In this document: positions 3,720 through 37,452 of the stretch, piece after piece
Layout: each line of letters starts with the position of its first letter
Numbering within the stretch: the stretch's first letter is position 1
Assembly: GCA_030609135.1 (NCBI GenBank)
Contig: JAUWCU010000001.1
Location: 927-64,926, forward strand
Length of the DNA stretch: 64,000 nucleotides
Direction: 5' to 3'
DNA from: Candidatus Stahliibacteriota bacterium
GTDB lineage: Bacteria > Hydrothermota > Tepidihabitantia > SM23-42
Made by a program: the position numbers and the translations under genes
Notes under the pieces: generated by a model
What the model was told of the DNA's origin: nothing
Databases searched by the model: none
What the model saw: the letters and a program-made list of their open reading frames with translations, nothing else

Positions 3720-4447
3720 TTCCACTTTGTCTGTTTTCTCAAGACATTGATGAAGCTATAAAGCTATTCAATTCATCACAGTATGAACGGGCACGCGATA
3801 TCTTTGTACGGGTGGCAGAGGATGAGAATAATCCACGTATTGCTGAGGCATACTATTACTTAGGACGTTTGTCATTTATCCCGGACAGCGCGTTATTCTA
3901 TTTTAATAAGGTGAAAACCGATTACCCACAGTCACGCTATGCTGATATTTCATATTTGGAGATTGCCAAGAGCAGTATTGCGCGTAAAAAGTATCAGAAT
4001 GCGATCATCACCTTAAACGAACTTTTGCGAAAATATCCAGATACTAATTTGCAGGATGAAATAATGTTCTGGTTAGGCGTTTCCTACATGAGTAGTGATA
4101 AGGAAAAAGAAGGCATCAGTATTCTTGATAACTTAAGAAAAACATATCCAAAATCAGTGTGGAGTGAACGGGCACTGGCAATTATTCCCTCGACAGACAC
4201 CCCTGAAGTTCCCCAGGAGTATTACACGGTTCAGGTGGGATCATATCGTAATAAAAGCAATGCTGAGAAATACGCTGAAGAAATCAGAAAGAAAGACTTC
4301 AGTGTTCAGATAGTCGAAGCACTGGTTAAAGGCAACACGTATTACCGCGTCTGGGTCGGTGAATTCTCCACCATTGAACAAGCCAAGACATTTTCTCGTG
4401 AACTCGAGTCTTCGGGAATAAAAGGGAATGTCGTTAAAGGATACTAG
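3674..4447 (+). CDS. Secreted TPR protein with C-terminal SPOR (peptidoglycan-binding) domain
   Basis: Signal peptide MSKMSRYRIILALLIVPLCLFSQ; C-terminal YTVQVGSYRNKSNAEKYAEEIRKK...YRVWVGEFS SPOR-like; start overlaps lapB 3' end by 46 nt. Confidence 0.6.
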   Translation: MSKMSRYRIILALLIVPLCLFSQDIDEAIKLFNSSQYERARDIFVRVAEDENNPRIAEAYYYLGRLSFIPDSALFYFNKVKTDYPQSRYADISYLEIAKSSIARKKYQNAIITLNELLRKYPDTNLQDEIMFWLGVSYMSSDKEKEGISILDNLRKTYPKSVWSERALAIIPSTDTPEVPQEYYTVQVGSYRNKSNAEKYAEEIRKKDFSVQIVEALVKGNTYYRVWVGEFSTIEQAKTFSRELESSGIKGNVVKGY

Positions 4448-4554
4448 TAATAATGCAGTATCGCTTTGTTTCTCGAAAACTCTCGAAACAAGCTCGCAGT
4501 AGACGCAGTATCGCTTCGCTCGCAAAGAGTTTATTGAGCGAGTCCCGAAGGGAC

Positions 4555-4658
4555 GATCCTGCGAGTTCTGCCGATTGTAATGGCAGAATGATACTGCAAG
4601 ACCCGCCATGTTTTTTGGCGGGTTGATCCTGCAAGTTCTGTAGGAACGATCCTGCGTA
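4555..4658. repeat. Short direct repeats GATCCTGCRAGTTCTG (x2, plus partial third copy) and GC-rich hairpin ACCCGCCA..TGGCGGGT in the mutS 5' region
   Basis: Copies at 4555-4570, 4625-4640, partial 4648-4658; hairpin 4610-4633. Confidence 0.5.
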
Positions 4659-4665
4659 TGTAATT

Positions 4666-14424: not shown

Positions 14425-14988
14425 TCACTCAACATCTACTTGTGCCTTCTGCTTCATCAGTTTTTTCAGTAGATAACCGGTCATCACCCGATTAAGATGC
14501 TCAAAATCAGTACACCCGATTAAATCGCTGCCCTTGATATCAGTATAGTAAAGCTCATCGTTGTCAATGTTTTTCTTCTCAACCTTGACCTTGAATTCAG
14601 CATCGAATGCAGTCATGAACTGTCTTACCGGCATATCGATGATGCCCTTTTCAGAATACTGTGCGATCAGTGTATCGATTTCTCTTCGATTCTGAGACAG
14701 GTGTTCGATCTCCTTTTCTATCTCTCCTCTTGACCCTGTGGCTTTACCAAACATGTACTGTAGATTCACCGGATCCTGTATTTCCTTTAACTTATCAGCC
14801 CCTTTCTTTAAAACCCCCTCGAGTATAGCGATTGCCTTTTGGATCTTATCCTGTGCTTCAAGCAGACAAGACAGATATGCCTCGATAACCTGGAATGAAG
14901 GCATCTTTTCCAAATTATCGTAGAACAATTGACCATAGGGTTTACAAAATGGCCCCTTATCTATATCCTCAATAGAATCAAACACCAT
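14425..14988 (-). CDS. Hypothetical protein (probable start at internal Met [10 protein letters not shown]; ORF overlaps enolase 3' end if extended)
   Basis: ORF only; no recognisable motifs. Confidence 0.35.
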
Positions 14989-16288
14989 ATTCAATCCCCC
15001 TGCTTCCTCTAATAAAAGCTTCTTTGGCAAGGTGTATTGCAGCACCCTTTAGTTCATCCTCAATACGTAAAAGCTGATTGTATTTCTCAATACGTTCGCC
15101 GCGGCATGGCGCACCAGTCTTCAAAGCTCCAGTACCCATGGCAACGGTGAAATCCGCAATAAAAGAATCTACTGTTTCACCACTTCGGTGTGACACAACG
15201 ACACCCCATTTGACCCTCTGTGCCATCTTCACCGCAGCAATCGTTTCGGTAAGCGTACCGATTTGATTTGGCTTGATCAACACGGCATTAGCAACCTTCT
15301 CCCTGATGCCTCTCTCAAGCCGCTCAACATTGGTGACGAAAATGTCATCGCCGATTAGCTCGATCTTATCGCCCAGGGCGTCATTCAACATTTTCCAACC
15401 TTCCCAGTCATCTTCAGCAAGACCATCTTCGATCGCCACGATCGGGTATTTATTGACCAACCCCACATATTTCTTAACCATTTCTGCAGAACTAAGCTCA
15501 GTGTTTTCTATCCGTAACTTGTACTTGCCATCTTCAAAAAAGCAACTTGCTGCAACATCGAGTGCTATGCCGACGTCTTCACCGGGTCGGTAGCCAGCCT
15601 TTTCAATCGCACGGACAATGAAGTTAAGGGGTTCTTCATTTGACGCCAGTTGAGGTACAAACCCACCTTCATCAGCAACTGTAATCCTAAGCCCTTTGTC
15701 AAGCAGAATATTTTTCAGCGCGTGATATGTTTCACTGCCACACCTCACGGCTTCTTTGAAGCTTTTGCATCCATAGGGAACAATCATGTATTCCTGGAAA
15801 TCAGGTCCCTGCAATAACGTATGAACACCGCCATTGATAATGTTCATCATTGGAACCGGTATCAATACTGCATAAGGACCGCCCAGGTACTTATACAAAG
15901 GAAGACCTACTGCCGCTGCTGCAGTACGGGCAATAGCCAATGATACCCCACATAGAGCATTAGCACCCAACCTTTTCTTATTTGGCGTTCCATCAAGCTC
16001 AATCATGAGCTTGTCCAAATTAGGCTGTTCAGTTACATCACAACCAATTAACGCCGGCCCGATTATCTTGTTGATATTCTCAACAGCCTTTTGGACCCCT
16101 TTTCCACCATACCTTCGGTTATTACTGTCTCTGAGTTCAATTGCTTCATAAGTACCCGTGGATGCACCTGATGGAACAGCCGCACATCTTTTTAGTCCTG
16201 AATCCAGCTCAATATCAACTTCGACTGTCGGGTTGCCGCGCGAATCCAGTATTTCTCTACCAAAAACTGACGTTATATTTCTGTTCAT
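14978..16288 (-). CDS. eno: Enolase (phosphopyruvate hydratase), canonical
   Basis: [56 protein letters not shown]. Confidence 0.95.
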
Positions 16289-16366: not shown

Positions 16367-18991
16367 CTATTTGCGGTCGGTGTAGATCTGCATCTGTTCT
16401 CTTAGAACCTGATACAGTTTAATATCATCTTTCTTTACCTTTTCTTCAACTTTTTGCAGACCCATAATAAGGTCATCAAAAGTCAGGTTATCACAGAACA
16501 ATCGCCAGGACATATCTTTACTACCTTGCAACTGCTGCAACTTCTCTTTTGTCAACCCATCGCTTATCAAATCCAGGCCCCCGTGAGCCAATATCGCCCT
16601 GGCAACGGTCTGCTTCATCTCCTCTCTCAATAGCTGCCACAAATCCTTCCCCTGAATATGAGCGATCAAGCGGCCAACTGCCAGAGACATGGACAAGATA
16701 GCATTCATACCAAGATTACCCTTCCTTTGCATAATCTTAATGAATTCATCACTGGTAGCGTTTTGAGATACCTTGCCCCTTTTGATCGCAGTCTCTTTTT
16801 CAATAGTAAGCAGTTTCCTGTCAAGTTCAATAATACTTGTGAAATCCACAGCTTTCTTACTGATAAACTCCTTAGCAATGATATTCAGTACGTTCTTGAC
16901 AGCGTTTTTACAGCCCATACCACCATAGCGCTGGCTCATATTCCAAAGTGCAAATAGCTCTTGGTCCTTAGTCTGCGTAATATCATTGGTCGTTAATTCC
17001 TTTTTGAATTTGTATGTCTTATCACCCTGTTCGCTAAACAAATCTCTATGCTTATCAACAACTGGAGACCTTTCAATTATGCTGTCCACCAGGTGAATGG
17101 CTTCATCTAATCCTGCTGATGTGCCAAGCGGTGTGGCACCGGTGAATTTCAAGATTCTTCTATATTTCTCACTCCCTTCAATACCGAGGTGAACCTCGAC
17201 CCCGACCGTTGGAATCCCTGCATTAGTGGGCTCTTCATAAGCAATTACATCGGTGATTACCAAGGAATCAATAAATTTCTTGGTCTCGAACAATCCTTTT
17301 TTCTCGTACTTGCCCTCAATCACTTTTTCCATATCCTTCATGATTTTTGTCACGGCGCCGTATTTAAAAAGCCGCTCGGTATTGGCACCGCCGCCGGTCT
17401 TCATGCCGAGCGCGTTTGCGGCAAGGGCAATCTGTGCTTCCATATCATCATTAGGTGATTTCGACCGGTGCGACACAACAAGCTCCAATCCTTTGCCCAA
17501 AGCGACAAGCATAGCAAGTATTGTTTCTGACAAAGTGCCGATTTGATTAGCCTTGATCAATGCCGTATTTATCAGTCTATTATCAGCACACTCCTCGATC
17601 GTGGAATCTTTGGTCGTGACCAGATCATCGCCGATAATAAGAACCTTATCGCCAAGTTCTTTCATCAAAAGCCGCCATCCCTCGTAATCATCCTCAGCAA
17701 ACGCATCCTCGAGTGAAATTATTGGAATTTCCTCAACGGTTTTCTTGTATAGATCCACCAATTGATCCCTGGACATAACGATCTTTTCTTCACTGCGCCA
17801 GAAAAAATACATCCCGATACTGTCTGACTGCTTGAATTCAATTCGATAGGCATTGCTCAATTCACTGAGTGCCGGATCAAAAGCAAGAACAATATCCTTC
17901 CCTGGAACATAACCAATATCTTTGATGGTCTGGACCGCCATGCGCCACATCCTTTGCTCTGGTATGGTATCAGACGGTTCTTTACTAATATAAGGAGCCA
18001 AACCACCTTCCAAACCTGTCCCCATAACCCGTGAGCCAGTTGCCTTTTCTATTATCTGTTTGAGCCTTGTTTGTAATCTGACCGTGATCATCTGAGCCTC
18101 TTCATAGTTTTTCGCGCATAGCGGCATGAACATCATCTCCTGCATACTAATATTACTCTCTGGATACTCCTGTTCAGTATGACGACCGCCCATACCGCAG
18201 TTCCTAAACTGCCATGGCGCGCGCAGTTTTTCACCCTTCTCAAAAGTGATTTCCTGCATCCTTTTGTTCCTGAGCATCTCTTTCACAGCTTTTGCCCTTT
18301 CAATCCAGTGCTCCCCAGGAATTTCAACTCTTTTCGCATGTTGTGCAGCTAATTTCTCCCGCCGTGAATACTCCTTCAATTTACCCGGATCAGCCAACAA
18401 GAAATCAAGCAAACCGACGGCGCCGATACCAAAACATAATCTACCAATGTAAGTCATTAAATCATGATGTAATGTAAGTCCGATAATGAGCAAAATGATG
18501 GCAAGCGGGAGCATGACCAAAGCCATTTTACCGCTTATTGCAGGTCCTGCAGCTGCCACGCTCAAATTGAATGGAGCCTCCGGGTAGTAGGTTAGACCCT
18601 CCTTCTTCACCCCGGCGAATTTGCCATAGGGAATTTGCAAAAACATGCCCGTATACCACATCAATCTTCCAAAGAAATTCCTTCCGGCATTTCTCTTTGC
18701 CTCGGGTAGGATATTTTCCTTTAATGCATTTGACTTAACCGCCCTGAGATAATGACCCATTTCATGAATCGCCACGCCGGTATGAAAACTAATCAACAAA
18801 AACAGTGCTGAGATAATAGTTTCATAACTTGTAAATACAAATTTTAATACATCCGGTCCATACAGGTCCGCCGGAATATTTAATAATGAAGACATAAACG
18901 CGACATGGAATGAAACCAGAATATGGTTTGCAATTACATGCGTTGAGTGCAGACTTTGTTTGTTTTTGTTCATTATAGATCTCATATTCAA
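16367..18991 (-). CDS. Membrane protein: N-terminal HExxH (M50/site-2-protease-like) domain fused to a domain-order-permuted enolase-like module (TIM barrel first, then enolase N-terminal domain)
   Basis: HEMGHY in hydrophobic region; barrel motifs DPALSE, EDAFAEDDYEGW, IGDDLVTT, IKANQIGTLSET, SHRSKSPND, MKTGG precede N-domain-like IPTVGVEVHLG...TSAGLDEA and NLGMNAILSMSLAVGRLIA. Confidence 0.7.
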   Translation of the reverse strand: MNMRSIMNKNKQSLHSTHVIANHILVSFHVAFMSSLLNIPADLYGPDVLKFVFTSYETIISALFLLISFHTGVAIHEMGHYLRAVKSNALKENILPEAKRNAGRNFFGRLMWYTGMFLQIPYGKFAGVKKEGLTYYPEAPFNLSVAAAGPAISGKMALVMLPLAIILLIIGLTLHHDLMTYIGRLCFGIGAVGLLDFLLADPGKLKEYSRREKLAAQHAKRVEIPGEHWIERAKAVKEMLRNKRMQEITFEKGEKLRAPWQFRNCGMGGRHTEQEYPESNISMQEMMFMPLCAKNYEEAQMITVRLQTRLKQIIEKATGSRVMGTGLEGGLAPYISKEPSDTIPEQRMWRMAVQTIKDIGYVPGKDIVLAFDPALSELSNAYRIEFKQSDSIGMYFFWRSEEKIVMSRDQLVDLYKKTVEEIPIISLEDAFAEDDYEGWRLLMKELGDKVLIIGDDLVTTKDSTIEECADNRLINTALIKANQIGTLSETILAMLVALGKGLELVVSHRSKSPNDDMEAQIALAANALGMKTGGGANTERLFKYGAVTKIMKDMEKVIEGKYEKKGLFETKKFIDSLVITDVIAYEEPTNAGIPTVGVEVHLGIEGSEKYRRILKFTGATPLGTSAGLDEAIHLVDSIIERSPVVDKHRDLFSEQGDKTYKFKKELTTNDITQTKDQELFALWNMSQRYGGMGCKNAVKNVLNIIAKEFISKKAVDFTSIIELDRKLLTIEKETAIKRGKVSQNATSDEFIKIMQRKGNLGMNAILSMSLAVGRLIAHIQGKDLWQLLREEMKQTVARAILAHGGLDLISDGLTKEKLQQLQGSKDMSWRLFCDNLTFDDLIMGLQKVEEKVKKDDIKLYQVLREQMQIYTDRK

Positions 18992-19148: not shown

Positions 19149-20720
19149 TTAAGGACGGTATCTCAGAGGGCAAGACAAGCACCGCTTAGCTTCTTTCTTT
19201 AACTCATTTTTAGATACCTTCAACTCAACTTCCTCAAAATCGTGTATTCTGTCTTCGACCTTTCGATGGGGGATTACCATCCTTTCTACAGGATGTAGAG
19301 GAAGAAAAAATACATGAGGGTAATAGGTTCTCTTCAGTATTCTAGCGAATAATGGATGTATTCCTCTCATATACAAATCTATCTGCTCAGCTGCATTCAG
19401 ACCGTGCCCAACTGCGTGGGCAACGGTTTTGCTACCCAAGACCGCATCGCCCCCGGCAAAAATCTTTGGATGAGACGTTCTCCAGTTCTTCGTCTTGATA
19501 CAACCGGATGTGTCACTCTTTAAATACTCCTTCAGAAAATCTGTATCAGGATATTGTCCAATAGCCATGACGATATGATCCAAATCGACATCAAATTCAC
19601 TTCCCTGTATTACCTTTACACCACCTTTTCTACCCTCTCGGCATTCAGTCTTTTGCATGATTATTCTGTTTTCCTCTATCTTTATTGGTACTGTAAGCGG
19701 TACAATTTCAATCCCTTCCTCCTGGGCTTCCACTCGGTCTTCACGTTCAGCCGGCATATCCTCTATCCTTCTTCTGTAGTATATCTTCACTTCATTACCT
19801 TGCCTTATCAAACTACGCGCGATATCAATCGCCGTATTGCCACCGCCAATAACGCCAACCTTACCCAACTTGAATTTTTCACCCTTTTTTATCTGCCTGA
19901 GAATGTCAAAACCGACCAGTGCCCTCTTTTCACCTGGGATACCGAGTTTTGTCGGCTTCCACGCGCCGGTAGCGACAAAGACAATATCATAAGTTTCCAA
20001 TAGCTCATCCATGGATAAATCCTTACCAACTGCGACACCGTACTTCAGTTCAACACCAACATTCATTGCGGCCTCAATTTCCTTATCTAATAAAGATTGA
20101 GGAAGACGAAACTCTGGTATTAATGTAGCGAGAACGCCGCCCGGTTTTTGTTCTCTCTCAAATACAGTAACCCCGTATCCTTTATTCACAAGATAGTACG
20201 CTGCAGTCAAACCACATGGACCTGCACCTATTACTGCGATTCGCTCTTTTTTTGTTTTCTGCTTAGGGGTTGGCACCTGCATCTTTACGCCAGACTTGAG
20301 ATATCTTATTGCAACAGCTGCATCAATTCCTCTCCTTGTGCACTGATCTTCACAAGGGGCTGGACAGATGAGTTCAAGAGTTCTGAAAAAAGGCACGAAT
20401 GAATACGGTTGACTATTATCTGCTGCAACAAGATTTACATATATCCAGGGCGCAATGCCCGCCGGACATGCCTTTTCACAGGGTGGCTTTTCATAGCCAA
20501 CCCCTTTATACGCATCATACACGTTGTATAGCCAAACCAAAACCCAAGCAGCGAGCAAACCCCAGAACCCAGGGTTGAATCCTGTCCAGATTTTAATCAT
20601 TATGGCAATCGAGCCGTAAAAGAAGACTGCAAATGAAATTCCAGCCCACAATCTGCCTGAACAAATCTGACCACCACCGACTACAAATGCTGATATAAGT
20701 GCTGCCTTACCGTACTTCAT
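19149..20720 (-). CDS. Membrane-anchored GltD-like NAD(P)H:FAD oxidoreductase with Fe-S cysteine clusters (glutamate synthase small-subunit family)
   Basis: N-terminal TM helices, CEKACPAG / CPAPCEDQC Cys clusters, GAGPCGLTAA dinucleotide-binding motif, second GGGNTAID Rossmann motif. Confidence 0.75.
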   Translation of the reverse strand: MKYGKAALISAFVVGGGQICSGRLWAGISFAVFFYGSIAIMIKIWTGFNPGFWGLLAAWVLVWLYNVYDAYKGVGYEKPPCEKACPAGIAPWIYVNLVAADNSQPYSFVPFFRTLELICPAPCEDQCTRRGIDAAVAIRYLKSGVKMQVPTPKQKTKKERIAVIGAGPCGLTAAYYLVNKGYGVTVFEREQKPGGVLATLIPEFRLPQSLLDKEIEAAMNVGVELKYGVAVGKDLSMDELLETYDIVFVATGAWKPTKLGIPGEKRALVGFDILRQIKKGEKFKLGKVGVIGGGNTAIDIARSLIRQGNEVKIYYRRRIEDMPAEREDRVEAQEEGIEIVPLTVPIKIEENRIIMQKTECREGRKGGVKVIQGSEFDVDLDHIVMAIGQYPDTDFLKEYLKSDTSGCIKTKNWRTSHPKIFAGGDAVLGSKTVAHAVGHGLNAAEQIDLYMRGIHPLFARILKRTYYPHVFFLPLHPVERMVIPHRKVEDRIHDFEEVELKVSKNELKKEAKRCLSCPLRYRP

Positions 20721-21501
20721 ATTTGATCGCCTTTGTTGGACACACCTTTACACAATCCAAGCAACGTATACAGTCAATGTGATTTGACGACTGATAAATG
20801 GGCACATCCATGGGGCAAACCATTCTGCACGATTCGCACTCAATACACTTTTCCTTATCTATCTGCAGTTTCAAAAGGCTGAAACGATTGAATATCGAGT
20901 ATATTGCCCCAACCGGACATAAAGTACGACAGAAAAATCTTTTAATTGATATCGAAAATAATATAACTGCTACTAATATCGCTGCCTTCATATAAAAATG
21001 CCAGCCAACAAGTGCTTTGAGGTCACTAGTCTTGTCTGATAGAACTAACGGGATCCCGGCAATCAAATTACCATCCGGGCATAATTTGCAAAACCACGGT
21101 TCTCCAATAAAATAAGGGAGCATTATTGCAGCACCAACAAGCATAGCATATTTAAAATAAGAACACCACCTTGGCAATTTCATTTTCGCTGATCTTATTT
21201 TGTATAATAGATCCTGGAAAAACCCAAATGGACATATCCAACCACACGACATCCTTCCCACAATCATACCAACTGTACCAAAGAGCCCTATGATGTAATA
21301 CGGAATCAGCCTCAAAGCAATGAAGTGCTGAAGTCCACCCATAGGACATGAATACCAAGCAAGTGGACATCCCCAGCAATTCAAGATTGGTGTACAGCCT
21401 TTTTTGAGAAAACCCTGATATAAACCACCCTTTAAAAGAGCTGGAATGTATGAATTATGAATTATTACGGCGATGATTTGAATAATCCGCTTTAACTTCA
21501 T
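20707..21501 (-). CDS. Membrane polyferredoxin (NapH/CcoG-like 4Fe-4S protein)
   Basis: Multiple TM helices, CxxCxxCxxxCP motifs CIECESCRMVCP and CIRCLDCVKVCP. Confidence 0.75.
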   Translation of the reverse strand: MKLKRIIQIIAVIIHNSYIPALLKGGLYQGFLKKGCTPILNCWGCPLAWYSCPMGGLQHFIALRLIPYYIIGLFGTVGMIVGRMSCGWICPFGFFQDLLYKIRSAKMKLPRWCSYFKYAMLVGAAIMLPYFIGEPWFCKLCPDGNLIAGIPLVLSDKTSDLKALVGWHFYMKAAILVAVILFSISIKRFFCRTLCPVGAIYSIFNRFSLLKLQIDKEKCIECESCRMVCPMDVPIYQSSNHIDCIRCLDCVKVCPTKAIKYEVR

Positions 21502-21635
21502 TCAATCCCCATACAAGATAAACACATCACCGAACCAACAGTTTCAGTTTCATCAAAATCGCCAAGTACACCACCGTAGATAATGCTGGCAATAAATATG
21601 GCAGCAAACATAAGAATGAAAATAATCTTTTTCAT
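21498..21635 (-). CDS. Small 45 aa membrane peptide MKKIIFILMFAAIFIASIIYGGVLGDFDETETVGSVMCLSCMGIE, translationally coupled (ATGA overlap) to polyferredoxin
   Basis: Hand-translated ORF below the 60 aa cutoff of the ORF track; single TM + acidic stretch + CxxC; stop TGA overlaps ATG of next gene. Confidence 0.4.
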   Translation of the reverse strand: MKKIIFILMFAAIFIASIIYGGVLGDFDETETVGSVMCLSCMGIE

Positions 21636-21703: not shown

Positions 21704-23227
21704 TTAGAACATGCTGGTTAGTACCAATTTGACACCCCGGAAGGGCTCTTCGAATCGACAGACGCCACCAGAACATACTAAACCACCTTTTTCCGCACCA
21801 ACCCGCAAGCGCAGATTATGGCGGCGCGTCAAATCAAGGCTCAACTCGACCATTGGCCAAGATGTTTCCTCACCGAGTTTAGGTATCAGCCAATCCGGCG
21901 GTTTGCGGCTGCGCCTTTCATAGCGTACAGAGAGCACAAACATCTCCGGTTTCCCTATTGACAAAGAAACAGCATGATCATAGTAATCACTCGTGTCACT
22001 GGATACGATATTGTGTTCATAACCAGCGTCAACAAAAAACAAACCAAAATCACAGGTAATTTCAATATAGGGTTTGGTTTCGATTTTTTCCTGTATGGGC
22101 AGTTCAATCCCCTGTTTGATCATCCTTTCAATACCGGTTGTAATTTCCACATTGGAACTCGGGTGAGTAGTAAGCTTGGCAATCTGTTCAAGCACACCAT
22201 CCATGTCCTCATCGAGATTTATTATTTCCTCAAACATACCCGATGACGCATCATGGGTTGAGATTTTATTATTGCTCAGCTCCAGTGAGATAAAATCAAA
22301 TGGTGAAGCAACTACTGTTGCACCATAACCAATCTCATCAATCCCACGGTTCACAGAAACCCCGGATTTTATGGGCGTTGGTGGTTCATTATAACGGTAC
22401 CCTGGACCGCCAAAACCAATGTTGTCGTAGTTAACATATTGACATGAAATACCCAGACCAGGGATAGCAAGACCAGTGGAAAGAAGAAACCCGTCGCCTT
22501 TTAACCGACCCCCGACTACTGGGTAAGTACCCCATTGCCGTCCATACTCAAAATAACTCTCCCAGGGTCCAATGGTCAAACCAGCATTACCACCGAACAA
22601 TTCAGTAAATGCCTGGGGTGTCAGATCAGAAACCCGGTTCACGCGCACATAGCGACCAGCAAACGAGGTGACAATATTGACCCGCTTTTTGGACAGCGGC
22701 AACTTGATTTCATAATTTGCACCTCTGACTTGATCGGTCGTATCGTTTTTTACCGAATAGCTGAGTTGTTCAAAAAAAATATTCCTCGGTTTACCAGTAA
22801 GTAATGTCAACCGACTATTAAAGAATTTAATATCTGCTTTCAGACCGAATAAAGAGTTATCATTATTAAAATCCTCGTCAAGGAATTGATTGAGCACCAA
22901 ACCCCTGCCAAATGTCGGGTAATACGTACCATAGAGAACACTCACCGGGTCTTTTCGATACTGCGCAGTGAAATCAAAGTATTGGAGCGAACCAGGGACG
23001 GCTATTGATGGATCCCAAAAAAAGAAAACACCTTTGAGCATGATATCTTTGTAATTAACCTTGAGTTTTAGTTTTTCAGTAAGGTGTTCCTTGTAGTTAA
23101 GACTGTCTAATCGGCGGTCAACAAATACCCAGTACTCAGCATGGTTCGCGCCACTGACACGTATATCTGATGCAGCAAGCAGATTGCACACTGTAAGTAA
23201 GAACAGAGTTTTACTCGCCAGTTTCAT
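21704..23227 (-). CDS. Putative outer-membrane beta-barrel protein (likely start at MKLASKTLFLL signal peptide; ORF extends to 23284)
   Basis: Signal peptide, beta-strand-rich composition, C-terminal ...LVLTSMF ending in Phe. Confidence 0.5.
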   Translation of the reverse strand: MKLASKTLFLLTVCNLLAASDIRVSGANHAEYWVFVDRRLDSLNYKEHLTEKLKLKVNYKDIMLKGVFFFWDPSIAVPGSLQYFDFTAQYRKDPVSVLYGTYYPTFGRGLVLNQFLDEDFNNDNSLFGLKADIKFFNSRLTLLTGKPRNIFFEQLSYSVKNDTTDQVRGANYEIKLPLSKKRVNIVTSFAGRYVRVNRVSDLTPQAFTELFGGNAGLTIGPWESYFEYGRQWGTYPVVGGRLKGDGFLLSTGLAIPGLGISCQYVNYDNIGFGGPGYRYNEPPTPIKSGVSVNRGIDEIGYGATVVASPFDFISLELSNNKISTHDASSGMFEEIINLDEDMDGVLEQIAKLTTHPSSNVEITTGIERMIKQGIELPIQEKIETKPYIEITCDFGLFFVDAGYEHNIVSSDTSDYYDHAVSLSIGKPEMFVLSVRYERRSRKPPDWLIPKLGEETSWPMVELSLDLTRRHNLRLRVGAEKGGLVCSGGVCRFEEPFRGVKLVLTSMF

Positions 23228-23741
23228 CCTTTTCACCTTCATTAAATAACTCACGCATCGTCTCAATAAGGACCTCCTCATCACCCGGTTTATAACCCAT
23301 GTGGGTGAAGACGATCTGTTTGTCCTGGTTGATTATGAAACTTGACGGCATTGCCTGGACATTGTACAGGTCGCGCAGGATATCATCCGGGTCCATGACA
23401 ATTACGTACTTCCACTTATGGCTCTGAGCAAAAGGTTTGACATTAGGCACACTTCTTGCCTTATCAACACTAATCGCCAAAAGGTTCATGTTCAAAGCAT
23501 CAAACTCATCATAGTATGGCTTAAGCGCATCGAGTTCTTTAATGCACATCTTGCACCATAGCGCCCAGAAACTCATAAAGACCGGGCCATCAGCAAGGAG
23601 CGAATCAAGACATACGGTATTGCCGTCAACGTCCTCAAGCGTGAAATCAGGGGCATCGATTATCTCTCCTTCATCAGCAAAGGCGAATATAAATGGTATT
23701 AAAAAAACAAATGCGAATTTTCTCATTCTATTTCTCCTCAA
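23211..23741 (-). CDS. TlpA/ResA-like secreted thiol:disulfide oxidoreductase (thioredoxin fold)
   Basis: Signal peptide MRKFAFVFLIPFIFA, redox motif WALWCKMCIKE (CxxC). Confidence 0.8.
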   Translation of the reverse strand: MRRNRMRKFAFVFLIPFIFAFADEGEIIDAPDFTLEDVDGNTVCLDSLLADGPVFMSFWALWCKMCIKELDALKPYYDEFDALNMNLLAISVDKARSVPNVKPFAQSHKWKYVIVMDPDDILRDLYNVQAMPSSFIINQDKQIVFTHMGYKPGDEEVLIETMRELFNEGEKDETGE

Positions 23742-24456
23742 AAGGACTAATTATTGACTGCATCACTTCTTTGGTATCTATATCCTGAACAAAAACGACT
23801 GTTTTCATATCGTTTACCGGTATTGCATGGGAAAAGGTTATGATCGTATCAAGTGTATCAGGATATGTTAGCTCAACTGGAAAAAAATAAAGTTCCTGGC
23901 ATATGTACATAAACGTTGTGTAGGCACCAGGCAAGCTATCCTGTAGAATCGCTACATAGACAATAATCTCGTCATCCGGGATCGTATCCGCAGTCACAAT
24001 AGTAAGATCTATGGACCCTGTAGACGGCGATGCCGCAGCGTTATTAATATACAAATTAAAGTACGGCGTCGCAGTACGAGCGATTTCTACACGTGCGGCA
24101 AACAAACTATCATATTCCCCAGGGTTAGGTTCCCACACAACGTCGGGGCCGTCAAAAAACACATACCACGGTACCAGTCCAGTATTATAAAATGCTTCAC
24201 GCTCGTCAGCAGCTGGATTATTATAAGTTCCCCCTATATGGTAGGAAATAATAGCAAGTGTATCACCGTAATAAGATAGTGAATCAGTAAGTGCCCGCTC
24301 CGCGAGCGCACAAAACCCTCAGTTATCCTCAGTAAAGATCTCAGCGAGTACGACCCGGTCAGTTGGTTCTGGAAATTCAACTTCCGGCGCATCAGAACAG
24401 ACACTTAAGAATAGTAATATTATTGCCAATGGAATAAAAAAAACAAGTTTTTTCAT
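23728..24456 (-). CDS. Candidate secreted selenoprotein (single in-frame TGA at 24319-24321 giving U-G-F-C); signal peptide/lipobox-like N-terminus
   Basis: ATG 24456 frame is continuous to stop at 23728 except one TGA; upstream MKKLVFFIPLAIILLFLSVCS signal peptide only makes sense if read through; hairpin follows TGA. Confidence 0.5.
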
Positions 24457-24543
24457 AAGCGAATTATACAAACATAAACCCATTTGTCAATAGGAAATTA
24501 GTTGTTAGTCCTGTATATTCCGCTTTTCCTCTTACCTTACAAC

Positions 24544-25590
24544 TTACCTTACAACAATCTTTCCAGATGTATTTGCCAGCAGACTCGTAAATTCATAGAA
24601 GTAGATGCCTGAGCTCATTGTCTGGCCTTTGCTGTCTCGCACATTCCATTGGACTGCGCTATGCTTGCCCAAAGATACTCCCTTGAACTTCTTGATTCGA
24701 CGACCTGATACATCGTAAATAGCTATGGTGTATTCCAAACCGGCAGGCAACTCAAATACAAACCCTGTTTCCCCAACACAAGGATTAGGCATAACAAGCA
24801 CCTGGTTCCTTTTCACATCCGTGTTCACTTCTTCAACCCCGAGTTCAGTTACTTTTTTCATACCGCCCTGCCAGATTTCAAATGTGCTGTCAACTTGCAT
24901 GCTATCATTCTGTATCCACGCTATAATTGTACAATGATTATCATTCCATATGGGATTTATGGTAAAAGGTTGTGTGACAATTGCATAGTCACTTGCCGGA
25001 ATAGATACAAGAGTTCCGTTATAGTCAGGCAAGTAGTCACGGGGTACATGATTGTGCCATTCAACACTATTTGGCGCCATGTAATACAAACTGTCTTCAG
25101 TAATAACAATTATTACCCTGCCATTAACAGTCGCAGTAGAATCATTTTGCAAATGGACATTAACTGTACCTTCTCCAGTTGACGGTGTATACTCTCCCCA
25201 CATGGTTATTGTTACCGGCGCAGGCATTGCCATGCGGTCAGTTATCATTGACTCCCATAACATATAGTCAAAACCACCGTGTTGATTACCGTCATACCAT
25301 AACCATGGTTCAAAGTACACACCATAGAATGGCGGCGGATAATAATGTATCCGTTGATACGCTTCTTCTAAATAGAACGAATCCGCAGAGCTGAAGTGCA
25401 CATCAACGACAGCGACTCGACCCGGGTATGTCACTGCAATCTGTGCCAGTGTCCCACTGGCAGTTCCGCAATCAGGTCATTCCTCGTCGCCAATATGCTC
25501 GCAAACAACAACGCGCTCGGCGGCAAAGCTCGTATTTACGAACAATATACAAAGAACAAGACTTATGAGTACTTTGACTAAGTTTTGCAT
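24544..25590 (-). CDS. Candidate secreted selenoprotein paralog (in-frame TGA at 25477-25479 giving U-P-D-C) with T9SS C-terminal sorting domain
   Basis: ATG 25590 signal peptide MQNLVKVLISLVLCILFVNTSFA in frame with 24544..25434 ORF through one TGA; hairpin TGCCAGTG-GGA-CACTGGCA 14 nt downstream; C-terminal T9SS CTD. Confidence 0.5.
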
Positions 25591-26075: not shown

Positions 26076-26735
26076 ATGTATAATTTATTTCTTGCAGATG
26101 ACCACACCGTGCTAAGAAACGGTTTGAAACGTATTATTGAAGAGAATTCAGGCTACAAGATTGTAGGTGAAACTGGAGATGGTTTAGAGATCGTTCATCA
26201 ACTGCGGAAACTACGTCCTGATATGATAATATTAGATATATCCATGCCTGGCCTGCGCGGCATTGAGGCAATCAATAAAATCAGAAAATTCAATAAGAAT
26301 ATAAAAATCCTCATATTAACAATGCATAAAAATGATGAATATGTTTATGAATGTTTAGTCAATGGTGCTCAGGGATATTTGCTTAAGGACGATGCAGATA
26401 TAGAGTTGATTGCCGCAATAAAAGAAATACAGAAAAACAAAATCTATATTTCTTCATCTTTCTCCAGTGAGGTAATAAGCAAACTCGTGCAGCATAGAAG
26501 TAAGGAGCGAGATAAGAAACAGAGATCAGTCTTCAAAGACCTCTCCCCACGCGAAAGAGAGGTGCTTAAATTGATCGCGGAAGGCAATCAAAACAAAAAA
26601 GTTGCCAGGAAACTGGGGATAAGTGTCCGCACTGTCGAACACCATCGGTTAAGCATAATGAGAAAGTTGAACGTTTCTAATACTGCAGGTCTTGTAAAAT
26701 ACTCTATAAAAGCCGGCTTGGTTGAGCTAACGTAA
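26076..26735 (+). CDS. NarL/FixJ-family response regulator (REC + LuxR-type HTH)
   Basis: DDHTVLRNGL, phosphoacceptor-region LDISMPG, C-terminal LSPREREVLKLIAEGNQNKKVARKLGISVRTVEHHR. Confidence 0.9.
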   Translation: MYNLFLADDHTVLRNGLKRIIEENSGYKIVGETGDGLEIVHQLRKLRPDMIILDISMPGLRGIEAINKIRKFNKNIKILILTMHKNDEYVYECLVNGAQGYLLKDDADIELIAAIKEIQKNKIYISSSFSSEVISKLVQHRSKERDKKQRSVFKDLSPREREVLKLIAEGNQNKKVARKLGISVRTVEHHRLSIMRKLNVSNTAGLVKYSIKAGLVELT

Positions 26736-26743
26736 TTGTTAAC

Positions 26744-28690
26744 ATGAAGAACAGAAGGAAAAGGCGTAAAAGCATCACGAGAACGAGCAAACATCAGGCG
26801 AAATCAAAAGTAATCAAAAAAACAGGACTACAAACCGAAGAGAAATATTTATCTGTTCTCACGGAGCTACCCGATATAGTCTATAAAATCGATCAAGATG
26901 GACTTTTTACATTTATTAACAACGCAGTTCGCATCCTGGACTACAAAGCTGAGGAACTCATCGGGAAACATTTCAGTAAAATAGTCCACCCGGACGATGT
27001 AAAATCATTCAGCAGGCACTTTGTTTTACCACAATATAAGGGTAAAACAACTGGATATGAAAAAGCACCAAAACTCTTTGATGAAAGAAGAACCGGTAAA
27101 AGAAAAACAAAGAATCTTGTGATACGGTTAATCCCGAAGAAAAACAGAGATAAAAAACCAGAATCAATTATTGGTGCAGTTATTGCCTTTGGTGACGTGA
27201 GTTCCGCAGGATACTATGATACTTGTGTGATGAAAAGTGAAAAGGACTTCCTTGGTACACTCGGGATTATCAGAAATATCACAGCGACCAAACAAGTTGA
27301 GGAAAAACTTCATTACCAGGCTGATTTACTTCAAAATGTTTCAGACGCTATCATTTCAACTGACTTCAATTTTAAAATCCAAACTTGGAACAAGGCTGCA
27401 GAAAAGATGTATGGATGGAAAGCCCATGAAGTAATTGGACGTAATGTGTACAAAGTCACCAAGATAAGATATCCACATGACACGACGGAACATGTCCTGA
27501 AGGAATTTTTCAAAAGGACATACTGGCAAGGTGAAACGATCGAAATCAAGAAGGACCGTACTTCCATTCATGTACAAAGCTATGTAACCTTGATCAAACA
27601 CCACGACGAAAAGCCAATCGGTACAGTTGCGGTGAACCGTGATATAACCGCGCTCAAACGGGCTGAAGAGCAATTGCAACAATCCGAAGAAAAATACAGA
27701 AGTATAGTCGAATTGGCTCCTGATGGCATAATAATAGTTGATAAAAAAGGTATTATTACATCAGTTAATACACCTTACTGCAAACGAACGGGTTATTCTA
27801 AGGAAGATATCATTGGCAAACATATTTCAAAAATACCCACTGCACGGATAAAAGATATTCCGAAATACATCAAGATATTCAATGCCCTACTAAAGGGAAG
27901 AATATCTGAACCATTTAATTTTCAATGGATTCGCAAAGATGGAACTGTATATTGGGATGAAGTCCATGTTAGCATAATGAAAAAAGACGACAGGACAACA
28001 GGTTTTCAGGCGATCATAAGGGACATCACCGAACGCAAAAAGATCGAAAAAGCACTCAGGGTGTCACTAAAGGAAAAGGAAGCCCTTATTAAAGAAATCC
28101 ATCACCGTGTAAAAAACAACCTGCAGATCATATCGAGTCTATTGAATCTTCAGACAGCGCATATTCATGATGAATACTATAAAAATCTCTTCCGGGAAAG
28201 CCAAAACCGGATCAAATCAATGGCTCTCGTACATGAAAAGCTCTATCAATCAAAAGACGTTACGGCGATTAATGTACGTGATTATATAAATGGGCTTTTA
28301 AGGTATCTTTGCCATTCATACGGTATAGAACAAAACAGAATAGCGATTAAGACAGATATAGAAGATATCACTATGAATATTGACATTGCAATCCCATGTG
28401 GCTTGATCATTACAGAACTCGTTTCTAATTCACTAACCCATGCATTTGTTGAACCACACCGAGGTTCTCATGCAAAAATCACTATTAAAATCCATCTTTA
28501 CAGGAAAGACAAAGCAGTCCTCATCGTTAGTGACAATGGCATAGGTTTTCCTGATGGTTTAGATTTCAAGAAAACAGAATCACTTGGCATGCAATTGGTG
28601 TGTGTGCTCACTAAGCAATTGTCAGGCAATATAAAACTCACCAGAAACAAAGGTACTACCTTTACTATTACGTTCAAAAAAGGGAGTTAG
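26744..28690 (+). CDS. PAS-domain sensor histidine kinase (HisKA_2/HWE-type dimerisation domain + HATPase)
   Basis: Multiple PAS segments, H-box [21 protein letters not shown]-terminal ATPase G-boxes. Confidence 0.8.
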
Positions 28691-28694
28691 TGTT

Positions 28695-29765
28695 GTGAGA
28701 GAAGATACTGGATCGGTCAAAACGAAAATACTCATTGTTGAGGATGAAAACATCGTTGCCAGAGATATTCAACAGAGACTGAGAAGCCTGGGCTATGACG
28801 TCTTATCTATTGCATCAACTGGTGAATCAGCAATTAGCCAGACAGAAAAGAATCGACCCGACCTAATCCTAATGGACATCAAACTAAAAAGCGGTATGGA
28901 CGGTATTGAGACAGCAGAACATATCCATAACCGATTGGATATACCAGTAGTGTATCTTACAGCATATGCAGATAACCACACACTAGAACGTGCAAAAATC
29001 ACTGAACCATTTGGATACATTATTAAACCAGTTGAGGATACCGAACTTAAATCAGCTATCGAGTTAGCTCTTTATAGACATACCACAGAAGTTAAACTAA
29101 AGCTTGAACAACAGAGAGTAAAGGAACTCACGCATAAAATCATTACTGCCCAGGAAGAAGAGCGCCTGTATTTAGCTTCGGAAATACATGATGACCTTCT
29201 TCAGGGACTGGTCGCCGTATTATACTTCCTGCAGATGATTGATCTATCATCCCTAGACCAAAAGACGCAAAACCAAAAAAAAGAACTGATCAAAATCATC
29301 AAATCCTCGATCGGCAGATGCCGTGGTTTGATAAGTGAAATAGAACCACTCCGCGAACCCAAAATGGGTTTAATTCAGGCAATAAAAAAATCAATCGACC
29401 AAAAGTTCGTCAATGCCGACATCAAGGTTCACTTAGACTACCCAGAAAAAATCGCAAAAATCAATCTCCTCACCAAAACCAATATCCTTCGTATCATTCA
29501 GGAAGCTTTAACAAACGTACAAAAGCATGCCGATGCAACAGAAGTTTTTATAAAAATAACAACCTCGAGGGGTAAATTAAGACTAAAGGTCAAAGACAAC
29601 GGCATTGGATTTAATCCAAAATCGATTCCTTTAAAAACGAGCCCACACTATGGACTCCTCACCATGCGAGAAAGAGCGCAGCTCATTGGTGGCGAACTTA
29701 CGCTTTCCAGTCGTCCTGGCAAGGGAACAACTATCAAGGGTATTTTTCCATTAATATTCAGGTAA
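28695..29765 (+). CDS. Hybrid REC + HisKA_3 + HATPase histidine kinase (NarX/DegS-like)
   Basis: Receiver ILIVEDE...[10 protein letters not shown]-box [19 protein letters not shown], ATPase DNGIGF...[14 protein letters not shown]. Confidence 0.8.
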
Positions 29766-29919
29766 TAATCTGCACTGTCTGGGCAGACCAAGAAGCACGA
29801 AAAATAGTCTGATTTTACAAAGTAGACTATTAGTAATCCTACCCATATATAAATACGTACTTTTCACGATTGCTTTACCCCATTCAACATTTAGAATATA
29901 GAATAATAGGGAAATAGAA

Positions 29920-30582
29920 ATGAATATTATGTATGATATTTTTCTGGCTGACGACCACACAATCATCCGACATGGATTGAGGCGTATAATTGAAGAAAAC
30001 CCGGGTTATCGAATTGTCGGCGAAACCGGTGATGGTCTAAAGGTAATCTCTAAAATTCGAACCCTACACCCCAATATGATAATCCTGGATTTATCTATGC
30101 CTGATCTCAATGGGATTGAGGTAGTCAACAGAATTAGAAAATACAATAAGAAAATCAAAATCCTCATCCTCACCATGCATAGGAATAATGAGTATGTGTA
30201 TGAGTGTCTGGTCAGTGGTGCTCAAGGTTATATACTCAAGGAAGATGCCGATTCAGAATTAATTTCCGCGATCAAAGCTCTCAAAACAGGTAATATCTAC
30301 ATTTCTCCTTCCTTTTCCAATGAAGTCATCAGAAATCTGATTGAACGTAGAAGCAACGCCGAGCGCAAAAGAGGAAGTGCAATTCGGCGGACGCTGACGC
30401 CCCGGGAACGTGAAGTTTTAAAGCTGGTTGCTGAAGGCAATTCCAATAAGAAAGTTGCTGACAAATTAGGCATTAGTGTGCGGACTGCTGAACACCATAG
30501 ACTGAATATCATGAAGAAACTCGGCGTGACCAATACAGCTGGTCTGGTGAGACATGCGTTGCGAACCAAGGTAATCGATTAA
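29920..30582 (+). CDS. NarL/FixJ-family response regulator (paralog of 26076..26735)
   Basis: Near-identical architecture and about 70% identity to the first RR. Confidence 0.9.
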   Translation: MNIMYDIFLADDHTIIRHGLRRIIEENPGYRIVGETGDGLKVISKIRTLHPNMIILDLSMPDLNGIEVVNRIRKYNKKIKILILTMHRNNEYVYECLVSGAQGYILKEDADSELISAIKALKTGNIYISPSFSNEVIRNLIERRSNAERKRGSAIRRTLTPREREVLKLVAEGNSNKKVADKLGISVRTAEHHRLNIMKKLGVTNTAGLVRHALRTKVID

Positions 30583-36374: not shown

Positions 36375-37452
36375 GGGGTCAAATCTTGAATAGTGAATAG
36401 CCCCATCAAGCTCTTGACATATCCCAAATCTTAAGTATTCTTTCCTGTGGCGAGGGCTTTACGTATACAATTCCCAGATGCTTATTATCACGTTATCTGC
36501 CGTGGTAACGCTAAAAAAAACATATTTTATGATGATCTAGACCGCAAAAAATTTCTGGAGCAACTTATCGATTCACTAAATACTTACGAAGTAATACTGC
36601 ACTCATACACACTTATGCACAACCACTTCCATCTACTTGTCCAAACACCGAAAGCCAATCTATCTGAATTCATGCGACGCTTCAACATTTGCTATACAGG
36701 ATGGTTTAATTATCGTCACCAACAATGTGGTCATATATATCAGGGTCGATATAAATCTCTACTTGTTGATGCAGACTCCTATCTTGTTGAACTGTCACGG
36801 TACATACACCTCAACATCGTTCGTGCACAAGGTACTGAACTAACATTATACGACGAGAAATGGAATCTGCTGCACAACTACAAATGGAGCAGTTTACCTG
36901 GCTATTTGAATAAATCAAAAACCAAACCATTTGTGAACTATGATTTTATCCTCTCAGTGATCAATGGACGTCGCGCTTATAAACAGTATATTTCTGATGC
37001 ACTCCAAAAAGGTACAAGAAACCCATTCGAACAACAGCTGTATGGTTGTATACTTGGGAGCAAAACGTTTATAGATAAAATACGGAAGGAACATACTTTT
37101 GAAGGATCTACACAGGAACAACCAACATACAAAAAGCTCTTGAGGAGAAGTATTGGTGCTGAATCTATCATCGCGTGCGTAGCAGATGTATTTGCCATTG
37201 ATAAGGTGCAAATACTCAAGAAACGTGGCTTTGATCCAGCACGGTGTATTGTTGCGGAATCGCTTTATCGTTTTGCTGAAATGAAACAAAAACAAATCGG
37301 TAGGTTGTTAGGAAATGTTGACTATTCTTCTATCAGTAATATGCGAAAACGATTTAAACGTTACATCACTGAAGACAAAGAGATAAATATGTTTTTCAAA
37401 AAAATTCTAAAGAGATTGAATAAACCTTATTCACTATTCAAGATTTGACCCC
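36375..37452 (+). mobile_element. IS200/IS605-like or REP-associated (RayT-like) Y1 transposase element bounded by 25-26 bp perfect terminal inverted repeats
   Basis: Left IR 36375-36400 GGGGTCAAATCTTGAATAGTGAATAG; right IR 37428-37452 exact reverse complement; encloses the transposase CDS. Confidence 0.7.
36447..37448 (+). CDS. Y1 (HUH) transposase, IS200-like N-terminal domain with C-terminal DnaA-C-like HTH extension
   Basis: HUH motif HNHFHLLV, catalytic Tyr region YQGRYKS; C-terminal DKVQILKKRGFDPARCIVAESLYRF resembles DnaA domain IV. Confidence 0.75.
   Translation: MARALRIQFPDAYYHVICRGNAKKNIFYDDLDRKKFLEQLIDSLNTYEVILHSYTLMHNHFHLLVQTPKANLSEFMRRFNICYTGWFNYRHQQCGHIYQGRYKSLLVDADSYLVELSRYIHLNIVRAQGTELTLYDEKWNLLHNYKWSSLPGYLNKSKTKPFVNYDFILSVINGRRAYKQYISDALQKGTRNPFEQQLYGCILGSKTFIDKIRKEHTFEGSTQEQPTYKKLLRRSIGAESIIACVADVFAIDKVQILKKRGFDPARCIVAESLYRFAEMKQKQIGRLLGNVDYSSISNMRKRFKRYITEDKEINMFFKKILKRLNKPYSLFKI

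Follow-up and report, generated by a model that had tools for sequence, protein, structure and literature searches.

A very probable pair of genes for exported thioredoxin-like selenoproteins, cut at an internal TGA in public annotation, in WOR-3/Stahlbacteria

Two adjacent genes with a single internal TGA

The DNA analysed here, termed the window, is a stretch of 64,000 nucleotides of contig JAUWCU010000001.1 (positions 927 to 64,926 of the forward strand), from assembly GCA_030609135.1 of a Candidatus Stahliibacteriota bacterium. It carries two adjacent paralogous genes, termed gene A and gene B, each containing one in-frame TGA, and we infer with high confidence that both are genuine selenoprotein genes, in which selenocysteine (Sec) is inserted at the TGA, and that they encode exported thioredoxin-like redox proteins. 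They represent two unannotated selenoprotein genes of a multi-copy, HBP35/Omp28-like thioredoxin-fold clade specific to candidate division WOR-3, and the kind of selenoprotein is already known.

Both genes lie on the minus strand. Gene B (25590..24544; 348 codons) extends from an ATG at 25590 to a TAA stop at 24546-24544, and gene A (24456..23728; 242 codons) from an ATG at 24456 to a TAG stop at 23730-23728; the sole in-frame TGA is located at 25479-25477 in gene B and at 24321-24319 in gene A. An earlier note on this DNA had joined a pair of open reading frames (ORFs) through a single TGA in each case, giving U-PDC and U-GFC, and both its coordinates and its translations are reproduced. The gene B product reads MQNLVKVLISLVLCILFVNTSFAAERVVVCEHIGDEE-U-PDCGTASGTLAQ... 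from its N-terminus, with ...RVVVCEHIGDEE-U-PDCGTASG... around the TGA, and the gene A product reads MKKLVFFIPLAIILLFLSVCSDAPEVEFPEPTDRVVLAEIFTEDN-U-GFCALAE..., with ...RVVLAEIFTEDN-U-GFCALAE... at the equivalent place. In both proteins the TGA falls after the signal peptide and a conserved β-strand, yielding a U-x-x-C motif. The gene B product comprises, in order, a signal peptide (MQNLVKVLISLVLCILFVNTSFA; 25522..25590, minus strand, upstream of the TGA; read from the sequence, with an inferred cleavage site), a thioredoxin-like domain with U38-x-x-C41, an Omp28-type β-sandwich and a C-terminal type IX secretion system (T9SS) sorting domain. The gene A product comprises a putative lipoprotein-type signal peptide (Cys20), a thioredoxin-like domain with U46-x-x-C49 and a β-sandwich. 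Most B-type proteins display an extra Cys eight residues before the Sec (RVVVCEE), which is Cys30 of gene B, at 25500-25502, and which could be a third redox residue; one B-type subclade has Ala in its place (RVVVAEM).

The proposed mechanism is that the ribosome would read the internal UGA of both genes as Sec, with a hairpin 9-14 nt downstream serving as a bacterial selenocysteine insertion sequence (SECIS) that would recruit SelB with Sec-tRNA(Sec). The products would be exported two-domain proteins with an N-terminal thioredoxin fold followed by an Omp28-type β-sandwich, and the U-x-x-C active site would have Sec as its first, nucleophilic residue. The classical signal peptide and T9SS sorting domain of gene B lead one to expect that its product is displayed at the cell surface, like HBP35 of Porphyromonas gingivalis, while the gene A product, with its lipoprotein-type signal peptide, would resemble Omp28. 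Both are presumed to act as extracytoplasmic selenol/thiol-disulfide oxidoreductases cycling through a selenenylsulfide, and the operon that follows gene A may, judging from synteny, keep both proteins reduced.

Conservation of the TGA column in relatives

A search with the gene B protein revealed 115 protein clusters, none of which covered the N-terminus of the query; their sources are without exception WOR-3, Stahlbacteria or unclassified metagenome-assembled genomes (MAGs). The DNA of relatives was examined directly in 61 loci from 41 species-level WOR-3/Stahlbacteria genomes. Translation through the stop revealed a common layout everywhere, consisting of Met, a signal peptide, R-V-V-V-x-E-x6, the stop and x-x-C, and Met plus signal peptide stood in frame before every TGA site. 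When the codons of the column were collected by this fixed pattern, the 61 loci presented TGA at 88 sites and Cys (TGC or TGT) at 2, thus 90 TGA sites including the two in the window, and neither TAA nor TAG was ever seen at the column in the loci or the window. Such conservation is far beyond chance. The column was TGA in all 75 distinct B-type sequences that were aligned and in 13 of 13 A-type sequences; gene A orthologues with a TGA were identified in 12 loci, 1-6 kb downstream of a B-type gene.

The codons preceding the TGA vary between close relatives in a manner that points to purifying selection upstream of the TGA, since most of the differences are synonymous: 9 synonymous and 1 non-synonymous over the 37 codons of gene B compared with locus L004, and 8 synonymous and 6 non-synonymous over the 45 codons of gene A compared with locus L001. 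The earlier note had asked whether Cys or Sec occupies the TGA column in homologues, and the conserved TGA is indeed paired with Cys there. Both Cys forms of the column occur in locus L014, where the A-type Cys codon is TGT, and more than 25 distant full-length homologues present CxxC at the aligned position.

Public annotation treats these loci differently. All 115 B-type database entries and 51 of 53 A-type entries start after the TGA, and the gene calls of the Logan assemblies consist of a 37-aa ORF followed by a 239-aa ORF, as expected if the TGAs were true stops separating a short secreted peptide (37 or 45 aa) from a second protein begun at an internal start. That explanation is nevertheless very improbable. 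The relatives' annotated starts fall at various positions shortly after the TGA column and share no conserved start codon. Homologues that begin downstream of the TGA and possess their own signal peptide, which the earlier note had listed as damaging to its proposal, were not found. The downstream products would lack a signal peptide, although that of gene B has a T9SS sorting domain, and the thioredoxin fold would lose strand β1 together with the first active-site residue. Furthermore, TGA is the only stop ever found at the column, and the Cys homologues read straight through the same position. Under the selenoprotein assignment, 115 B-type and 51 A-type public protein clusters, at least 166 in all, are cut at the TGA and lack their signal peptide and active site. 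Recognition of the read-through sets right the annotation of these proteins, which form a multi-copy family of an uncultivated phylum and are not reached by the curated NF045500 model.

Two apparently full-length A-type entries seemed to contradict the TGA; one proved to be a translation-table artefact and the other a real GGA variant. The first, public protein P0295, has Trp at the Sec column, yet its DNA has TGA (locus L065, 2231-2932; locus L066, 996-1697), the Trp arising because the table of the gene caller reads TGA as Trp. An A-type paralogue in locus L064 (JAUWLY010000090.1, 3668-4399) has GGA (Gly) where all others have TGA; its SECIS-like hairpin (GCACTCGC-GGA-GCGAGTGC) is intact, and no TlpA operon follows the gene. 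This GGA is explained either by a base-call error or by Sec having been lost recently.

SECIS-like hairpins downstream of the TGA

The hairpin of gene B, UGCCAGUG-GGA-CACUGGCA (25462-25444, minus strand; also written TGCCAGTG-GGA-CACTGGCA), consists of a GGA loop on an 8-bp stem and has a folding free energy (ΔG) of -11.4 kcal/mol; it begins 14 nt past the TGA, and 22 nt separate the UGA from the loop. That of gene A, GCGCUCGC-GGA-GCGGGCAC (24309-24291, minus strand; also written GCGCTCGC-GGA-GCGGGCAC), displays a stem of 6-8 bp and a GGA loop with a ΔG of -8.9 kcal/mol, begins 9 nt past the TGA and has 17 nt from UGA to loop. The earlier note had reported a hairpin after each TGA, and both exist, but it listed them in the reverse of the gene order. 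Both window hairpins satisfy the four published constraints on bacterial SECIS elements (bSECIS) quoted in PMC13188914, which were the criteria used here, as do 70 of 75 B-type and 13 of 13 A-type relatives.

Alignments of the 54 nt from the TGA onward in the 75 distinct B-type and 13 A-type sequences revealed compensatory changes in both groups. In the B-type helix, formed by columns 18-25 with columns 29-36, 86% of the cells are paired and the inner six pairs are nearly always formed. Pair 24-30 is U-A in 45 sequences and C-G in 25, while pair 25-29 is G-C in 49 and A-U in 13. Several of the covarying sites coincide with the third position of a Ser (AGY) or Thr (ACR) codon and are thus not dictated by the protein. 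The B-type covariation score was reached by none of 500 shuffles, and shifting the partner strand abolished the pairing. The A-type helix has 94% of its cells paired, with pair 17-27 being UA in 6, CG in 5 and UG in 2 sequences and pair 18-26 being UA in 7 and CG in 6; here the pair switches go together with Leu/Ser and Arg/Gln exchanges in the protein. RNAalifold, unprompted, predicted the same helices for both types. The proposal that the hairpins are SECIS elements is thus upheld by the four constraints, by compensatory changes at synonymous third positions and by those coupled to amino-acid changes. A control with the Cys forms comprised only two sequences, of which one has no hairpin and the other a weak, G-less one. 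Scanning the window with Rfam at gathering thresholds gave no match to a SECIS family (the only match was a tRNA-Leu), a result taken as uninformative.

Selenocysteine machinery and the meaning of TGA

The earlier note had called for a search for the Sec machinery, and selA, selB and tRNA-Sec are found in the lineage, often next to members of the family. ARAGORN identified tRNA-Sec in 5 of the 60 loci scanned, where tRNA-Sec accounts for 5 of the 12 tRNA or tmRNA genes, and Rfam confirmed all five (70-77 bits against a gathering score of 47). Three of them lie within ~250 nt of a family gene (L042, 5749-5842; L045, 7180-7273; L056, 4015-4108). In locus L022, selA (TIGR00474, 550 bits; cut-off 268) and selB (TIGR00475, 353 bits; cut-off 242) directly follow the family gene; selB is also present in L042, and both genes in L056. 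Further selA/selB loci, namely L006, L024 and L034, were detected by tblastn, which also revealed a selD-like gene in L032; L006 and L032 belong to a single complete chromosome. SelB occurs widely in WOR-3: more than 120 clusters share ≥59% identity with the protein of L006, and one of these, named Stahlbacteria, adjoins selA. A 58-kb contig, JBARXB010000004.1, carries selA-selB at one end and orthologues of both window genes, each with a TGA, at the other (68% and 58% identity); a comparison of the selA-selB end of this contig with the window revealed no synteny. The lineage therefore very probably decodes Sec, and the family genes are physically linked to the machinery.

TGA is otherwise an ordinary stop in the window, as the earlier note had maintained. 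The 47 long ORFs end in TAA (20), TGA (15) or TAG (12), and those ending in TGA include enolase and MutS, whose family profiles match them over the full length; TGA is thus not reassigned in this genome. This bears on the possibility that an altered code or a suppressor tRNA inserts a standard amino acid (Trp, Gly or Cys) at the internal TGAs, a possibility that the Trp of P0295 and the Gly (GGA) of one paralogue might seem to favour. The Trp comes from the gene caller's table, as described above, the TGA sites are accompanied by a SECIS-like hairpin, and tRNA-Sec, selA and selB stand next to these genes in the lineage, so that this reading, too, deserves very little credence. A scan of the window for other long open frames flanking an in-frame TGA revealed no other credible case. 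One candidate, a TGA at 4624 upstream of MutS (4438-4665, plus strand; ...PPCFLAG*SCKFC...), was rejected as a chance intergenic open frame, since the ORF at 4666 is matched by the MutS profile from its residue 3 onward.

Several observations weigh against the selenoprotein assignment or parts of it. The selA, selB, selD and tRNA-Sec genes were not found within the 64-kb window, where tRNA-Leu is the only tRNA, and the window copy of the gene A hairpin has a single C.A mismatch. Over 60 nt, stability relative to shuffled sequences is only modest (z = -0.8 for gene A, z = -1.9 for gene B), and the B-type hairpin owes some of its conservation to the protein, since part of it overlaps a conserved ASGTLA peptide. 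The L064 paralogue with GGA instead of TGA indicates that Sec can be lost, and the redox partners of the two proteins are deduced from gene order alone.

The first two of these observations would also fit a scenario in which the relatives are real but genes A and B, in the genome studied here, represent pseudogenes or assembly errors, for example after loss of the Sec machinery. The frames on either side of the TGA are, however, intact in both genes, the upstream codons differ from those of close relatives mostly by synonymous changes, both hairpins still pass the bSECIS criteria and the whole operon is intact. Sequence support at the TGAs, which the earlier note wanted re-checked, was provided by two independent Logan assemblies from different runs (SRR14923491 and SRR14876856), in which both TGAs are present; over 1863 bases one assembly is identical to the window and the other has three unrelated differences. 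Sequencing error and pseudogenisation are thereby excluded as general explanations, and the chance that they apply to this genome in particular is small. Genes A and B are best regarded as genuine selenoprotein genes.

Domain structure, fold and distant homologues

The gene B product matches the Pfam Omp28 family (PF11551) with 48.4 bits, above the gathering threshold of 34.9. Its T9SS type A C-terminal sorting domain (residues 266-348; 24547..24795, minus strand), recognised in the earlier note, is confirmed by TIGR04183 (32 bits against a cut-off of 23), while PF18962 scores 20.8 against 27 and thus remains below its threshold. Gene B therefore combines a T9SS sorting domain with an N-terminal signal peptide, the latter located upstream of the TGA. 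The gene A product has no match to Pfam Omp28 by sequence, its only Pfam hit being a weak one to Thioredoxin_2, and it has no T9SS sorting domain. Its Cys20, which ends the hydrophobic segment, is kept in 13 of 13 orthologues (...LSVC|SDAPE, ...IAAC|SKAPE, ...ALFC|SEAPE), although position -1 is often occupied by a residue other than G, A or S. Gene A may be the lipoprotein counterpart of gene B, with a putative lipobox that is atypical.

An exhaustive HMMER search with residues 39-255 of gene B recovered 581 relatives. Distant full-length homologues (28-35% identity) present ...E.FTNTxCxxC... at the aligned place. Across 35 aligned N-terminal domains the Sec/Cys column, the second Cys, the Glu of strand 1 and a DG pair are invariant, and the Pro before the DG strand is nearly so. 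The profile of this domain, searched against the Protein Data Bank (PDB), matched Atu2684/DUF1223 best (PDB code 2axo; E of 9e-8) and also many thioredoxins, with their CxxC aligned on UxxC.

Structures were modelled for the part of gene B after the TGA and for a natural full-length A-type homologue, P0264, which is 70% identical to gene A and has Gly at the Sec column. The P0264 model (predicted local distance difference test score of 86, predicted template modelling score of 0.82) displays a thioredoxin fold followed by a seven-stranded sandwich. Its elements follow the canonical thioredoxin order, β1-α1-β2-α2-β3-β4-α3, with the residue of the Sec column, residue 46, located just before helix α1 (47-67). 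The closest structure in the PDB is HBP35 (PDB code 5y1a; E of 2.6e-10, template modelling score of 0.68), followed by 2axo and, lower, by the Omp28 structure 2r2c, which is matched by the A-type model at an E of 1.3e-4 (structure only). HBP35 is the best and 2axo the second-best structural match of both models. The models thus support a thioredoxin fold with U-x-x-C at the predicted active site, followed by a β-sandwich, in both window products; the profile search of the PDB and the structure models agree in this respect with the thioredoxin-fold resemblance suggested in the earlier note.

Comparison with known selenoproteins and surface thioredoxins

The closest selenoprotein family is GOS_C, described from marine surface metagenomes (Zhang & Gladyshev 2008, PMC2398784). 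The NCBIfam model NF045500 ("Omp28-related selenoprotein") corresponds to "hypothetical protein GOS_C" (UxxC) according to the 2026 review of the prokaryotic selenoproteome (PMC13188914). As predicted for the window proteins, GOS_C has a UxxC motif in a thioredoxin-like fold, with a Sec column that may correspond to theirs; it likewise has many Cys homologues, a bSECIS just after the UGA and the NCBI class Omp28-related, and NF045500 is the top or second NCBIfam match of both window proteins. In contrast, this model, whose cut-off is 200 bits, gives only 50.2 bits with gene B and 20.9 bits with gene A. A further ten members from WOR-3 reach 26-72 bits, and the cut-off is likewise missed by ten truncated distant relatives. 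The window clade is, moreover, confined to WOR-3/Stahlbacteria MAGs. The window genes are thus not members of the NF045500 equivalog.

HBP35 of P. gingivalis is a surface-displayed T9SS cargo whose CxxC confers insulin-reducing activity (PMC2907840). Gene B shares with HBP35 (5y1a) the fold, the redox motif and the T9SS C-terminal domain, although identity is ~11% with no detectable sequence similarity and HBP35 is absent from the sequence-profile matches; the active site has Cys in HBP35 and Sec in the window proteins. On the evidence of the models, gene B would present the HBP35 architecture with Sec at the nucleophilic position. Gene A would resemble Omp28 (PF11551, NF033782, 2r2c) in its putative lipoprotein-type signal peptide, but NF033782 scores only 47 bits with gene B and 25 bits with gene A against a cut-off of 150. 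The secreted thioredoxin-like CxxC protein DUF1223/Atu2684 (2axo) aligns through ...ELFTSQGCxSCPPA... on ...E.FT...UxxC.A..., and differs in having Cys instead of Sec and no T9SS domain.

Other exported thioredoxin-fold UxxC selenoproteins include a thiol:disulfide interchange protein, DsbA-like and DsbG-like proteins and the Redoxin family (Table 1 of PMC13188914). These share with the window proteins the signal peptide, the thioredoxin fold, Sec in place of the N-terminal Cys of CxxC and a bSECIS within the coding region, whereas they belong to other thioredoxin subfamilies and none is described with an Omp28 sandwich and T9SS domain, or with the operon found here. A literature search found no paper linking Omp28, WOR-3 or Stahlbacteria with selenoproteins. 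The present observations document the very probable use of Sec in WOR-3/Stahlbacteria and describe what would be a selenium version of an HBP35/Omp28-type surface thioredoxin, probably placing a selenol outside the cell. To a specialist this is solid and unsurprising, and the understanding of Sec decoding is unchanged.

The operon downstream of gene A

Gene A and the five genes downstream of it, all on the minus strand, are separated by overlaps or gaps of a few bases. The four neighbours that the earlier note had singled out, a TlpA-like oxidoreductase, an outer-membrane barrel, a polyferredoxin and a membrane flavoprotein, correspond to family matches to AhpC/TSA-Redoxin (TlpA/ResA-like), DUF6029, Fer4_5 (NapH-like) and Pyr_redox_2, respectively. 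The first gene (23211..23726) starts 1 nt after the gene A stop and encodes a TlpA/ResA-like exported CxxC thiol-disulfide oxidoreductase (Pfam AhpC-TSA 81.9 bits, Redoxin 61.7 bits; 83 bits with the ResA model, which is below its cut-off). It is followed by a DUF6029 protein (21704..23284; Pfam DUF6029, 87 bits), presumed to be an outer-membrane β-barrel and conserved in position; DUF6029 has been likened by HHpred to the Wzi β-barrel (PMC9603273). The third gene (21498..21635) encodes a 45-aa single-pass membrane CxxC peptide, which has no family match in Pfam or NCBIfam, is conserved in 8 loci and displays the C-terminus GDFxETE[ST]VGSVMCLSCMG invariantly in these eight WOR-3 loci. Its TGA stop overlaps the start of the fourth gene (20707..21501), also conserved in position, which encodes a NapH/MauN-like membrane polyferredoxin (Pfam Fer4_5, 72.7 bits; TIGR02163, 72 bits, below the cut-off of 213). 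The last gene (19149..20720) encodes a membrane-anchored GltD-like NAD(P)-binding Fe-S flavoprotein (Pfam Pyr_redox_2, 111.8 bits; NF009410, 349 bits, below the cut-off of 516), which accompanies the NapH-like gene in L012 and L035. Two further matches of the flavoprotein, to the NCBIfam model "diclust_near_Sec" (NF045663; 135 bits, cut-off 530) and to YgfK, a putative selenate reductase subunit (243 bits, cut-off 835), are below threshold and probably reflect only GltD-like homology.

This gene order recurs wherever the A-type gene occurs, down to ~45% identity. A TlpA-like gene follows the A-type gene in 11 loci, and the Cys-type A gene of L014 is likewise followed by a TlpA-like gene before the contig ends. 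Synteny as deep as this suggests a functional unit. No DsbD/CcdA homologue is annotated within the gene A cluster. From synteny only, the arrangement suggests that the gene A operon is a dedicated reducing route keeping the exported redox proteins in the reduced state; it provides a concrete candidate for the recharging of such proteins, and is the one part of this system that could be new biology. A more far-reaching proposal is that the six-gene WOR-3 operon constitutes an undescribed, DsbD-independent electron route from cytoplasmic NAD(P)H to periplasmic selenols and on to the cell surface via the T9SS B-type paralogues, and that the family is the main reason why the phylum keeps the Sec trait. 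This is speculative and rather unlikely.

Other features of the surroundings

Beyond the flavoprotein gene, an 874-aa protein (16367-18991, minus strand) displays an enolase C-terminal barrel (residues 265-556) placed before an enolase N-terminal domain (677-788). It adjoins the canonical enolase (14978-16288, minus strand), and the pair is also found beside the cluster in L001 (93% identity) and L062. On the other side, divergent from gene B, the region 26076-30582 (plus strand) encodes a LuxR-type response regulator, a PAS histidine kinase, a hybrid receiver-kinase and a second LuxR-type regulator; the first two are conserved in position ahead of the B-type genes of L003, with 73% and 61% identity. 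Further along, a 333-aa ORF (36447-37448, plus strand) comprises an N-terminal domain resembling the REP-associated tyrosine transposases, with a score below the cut-off, and has a weak match to the C-terminus of DnaA.

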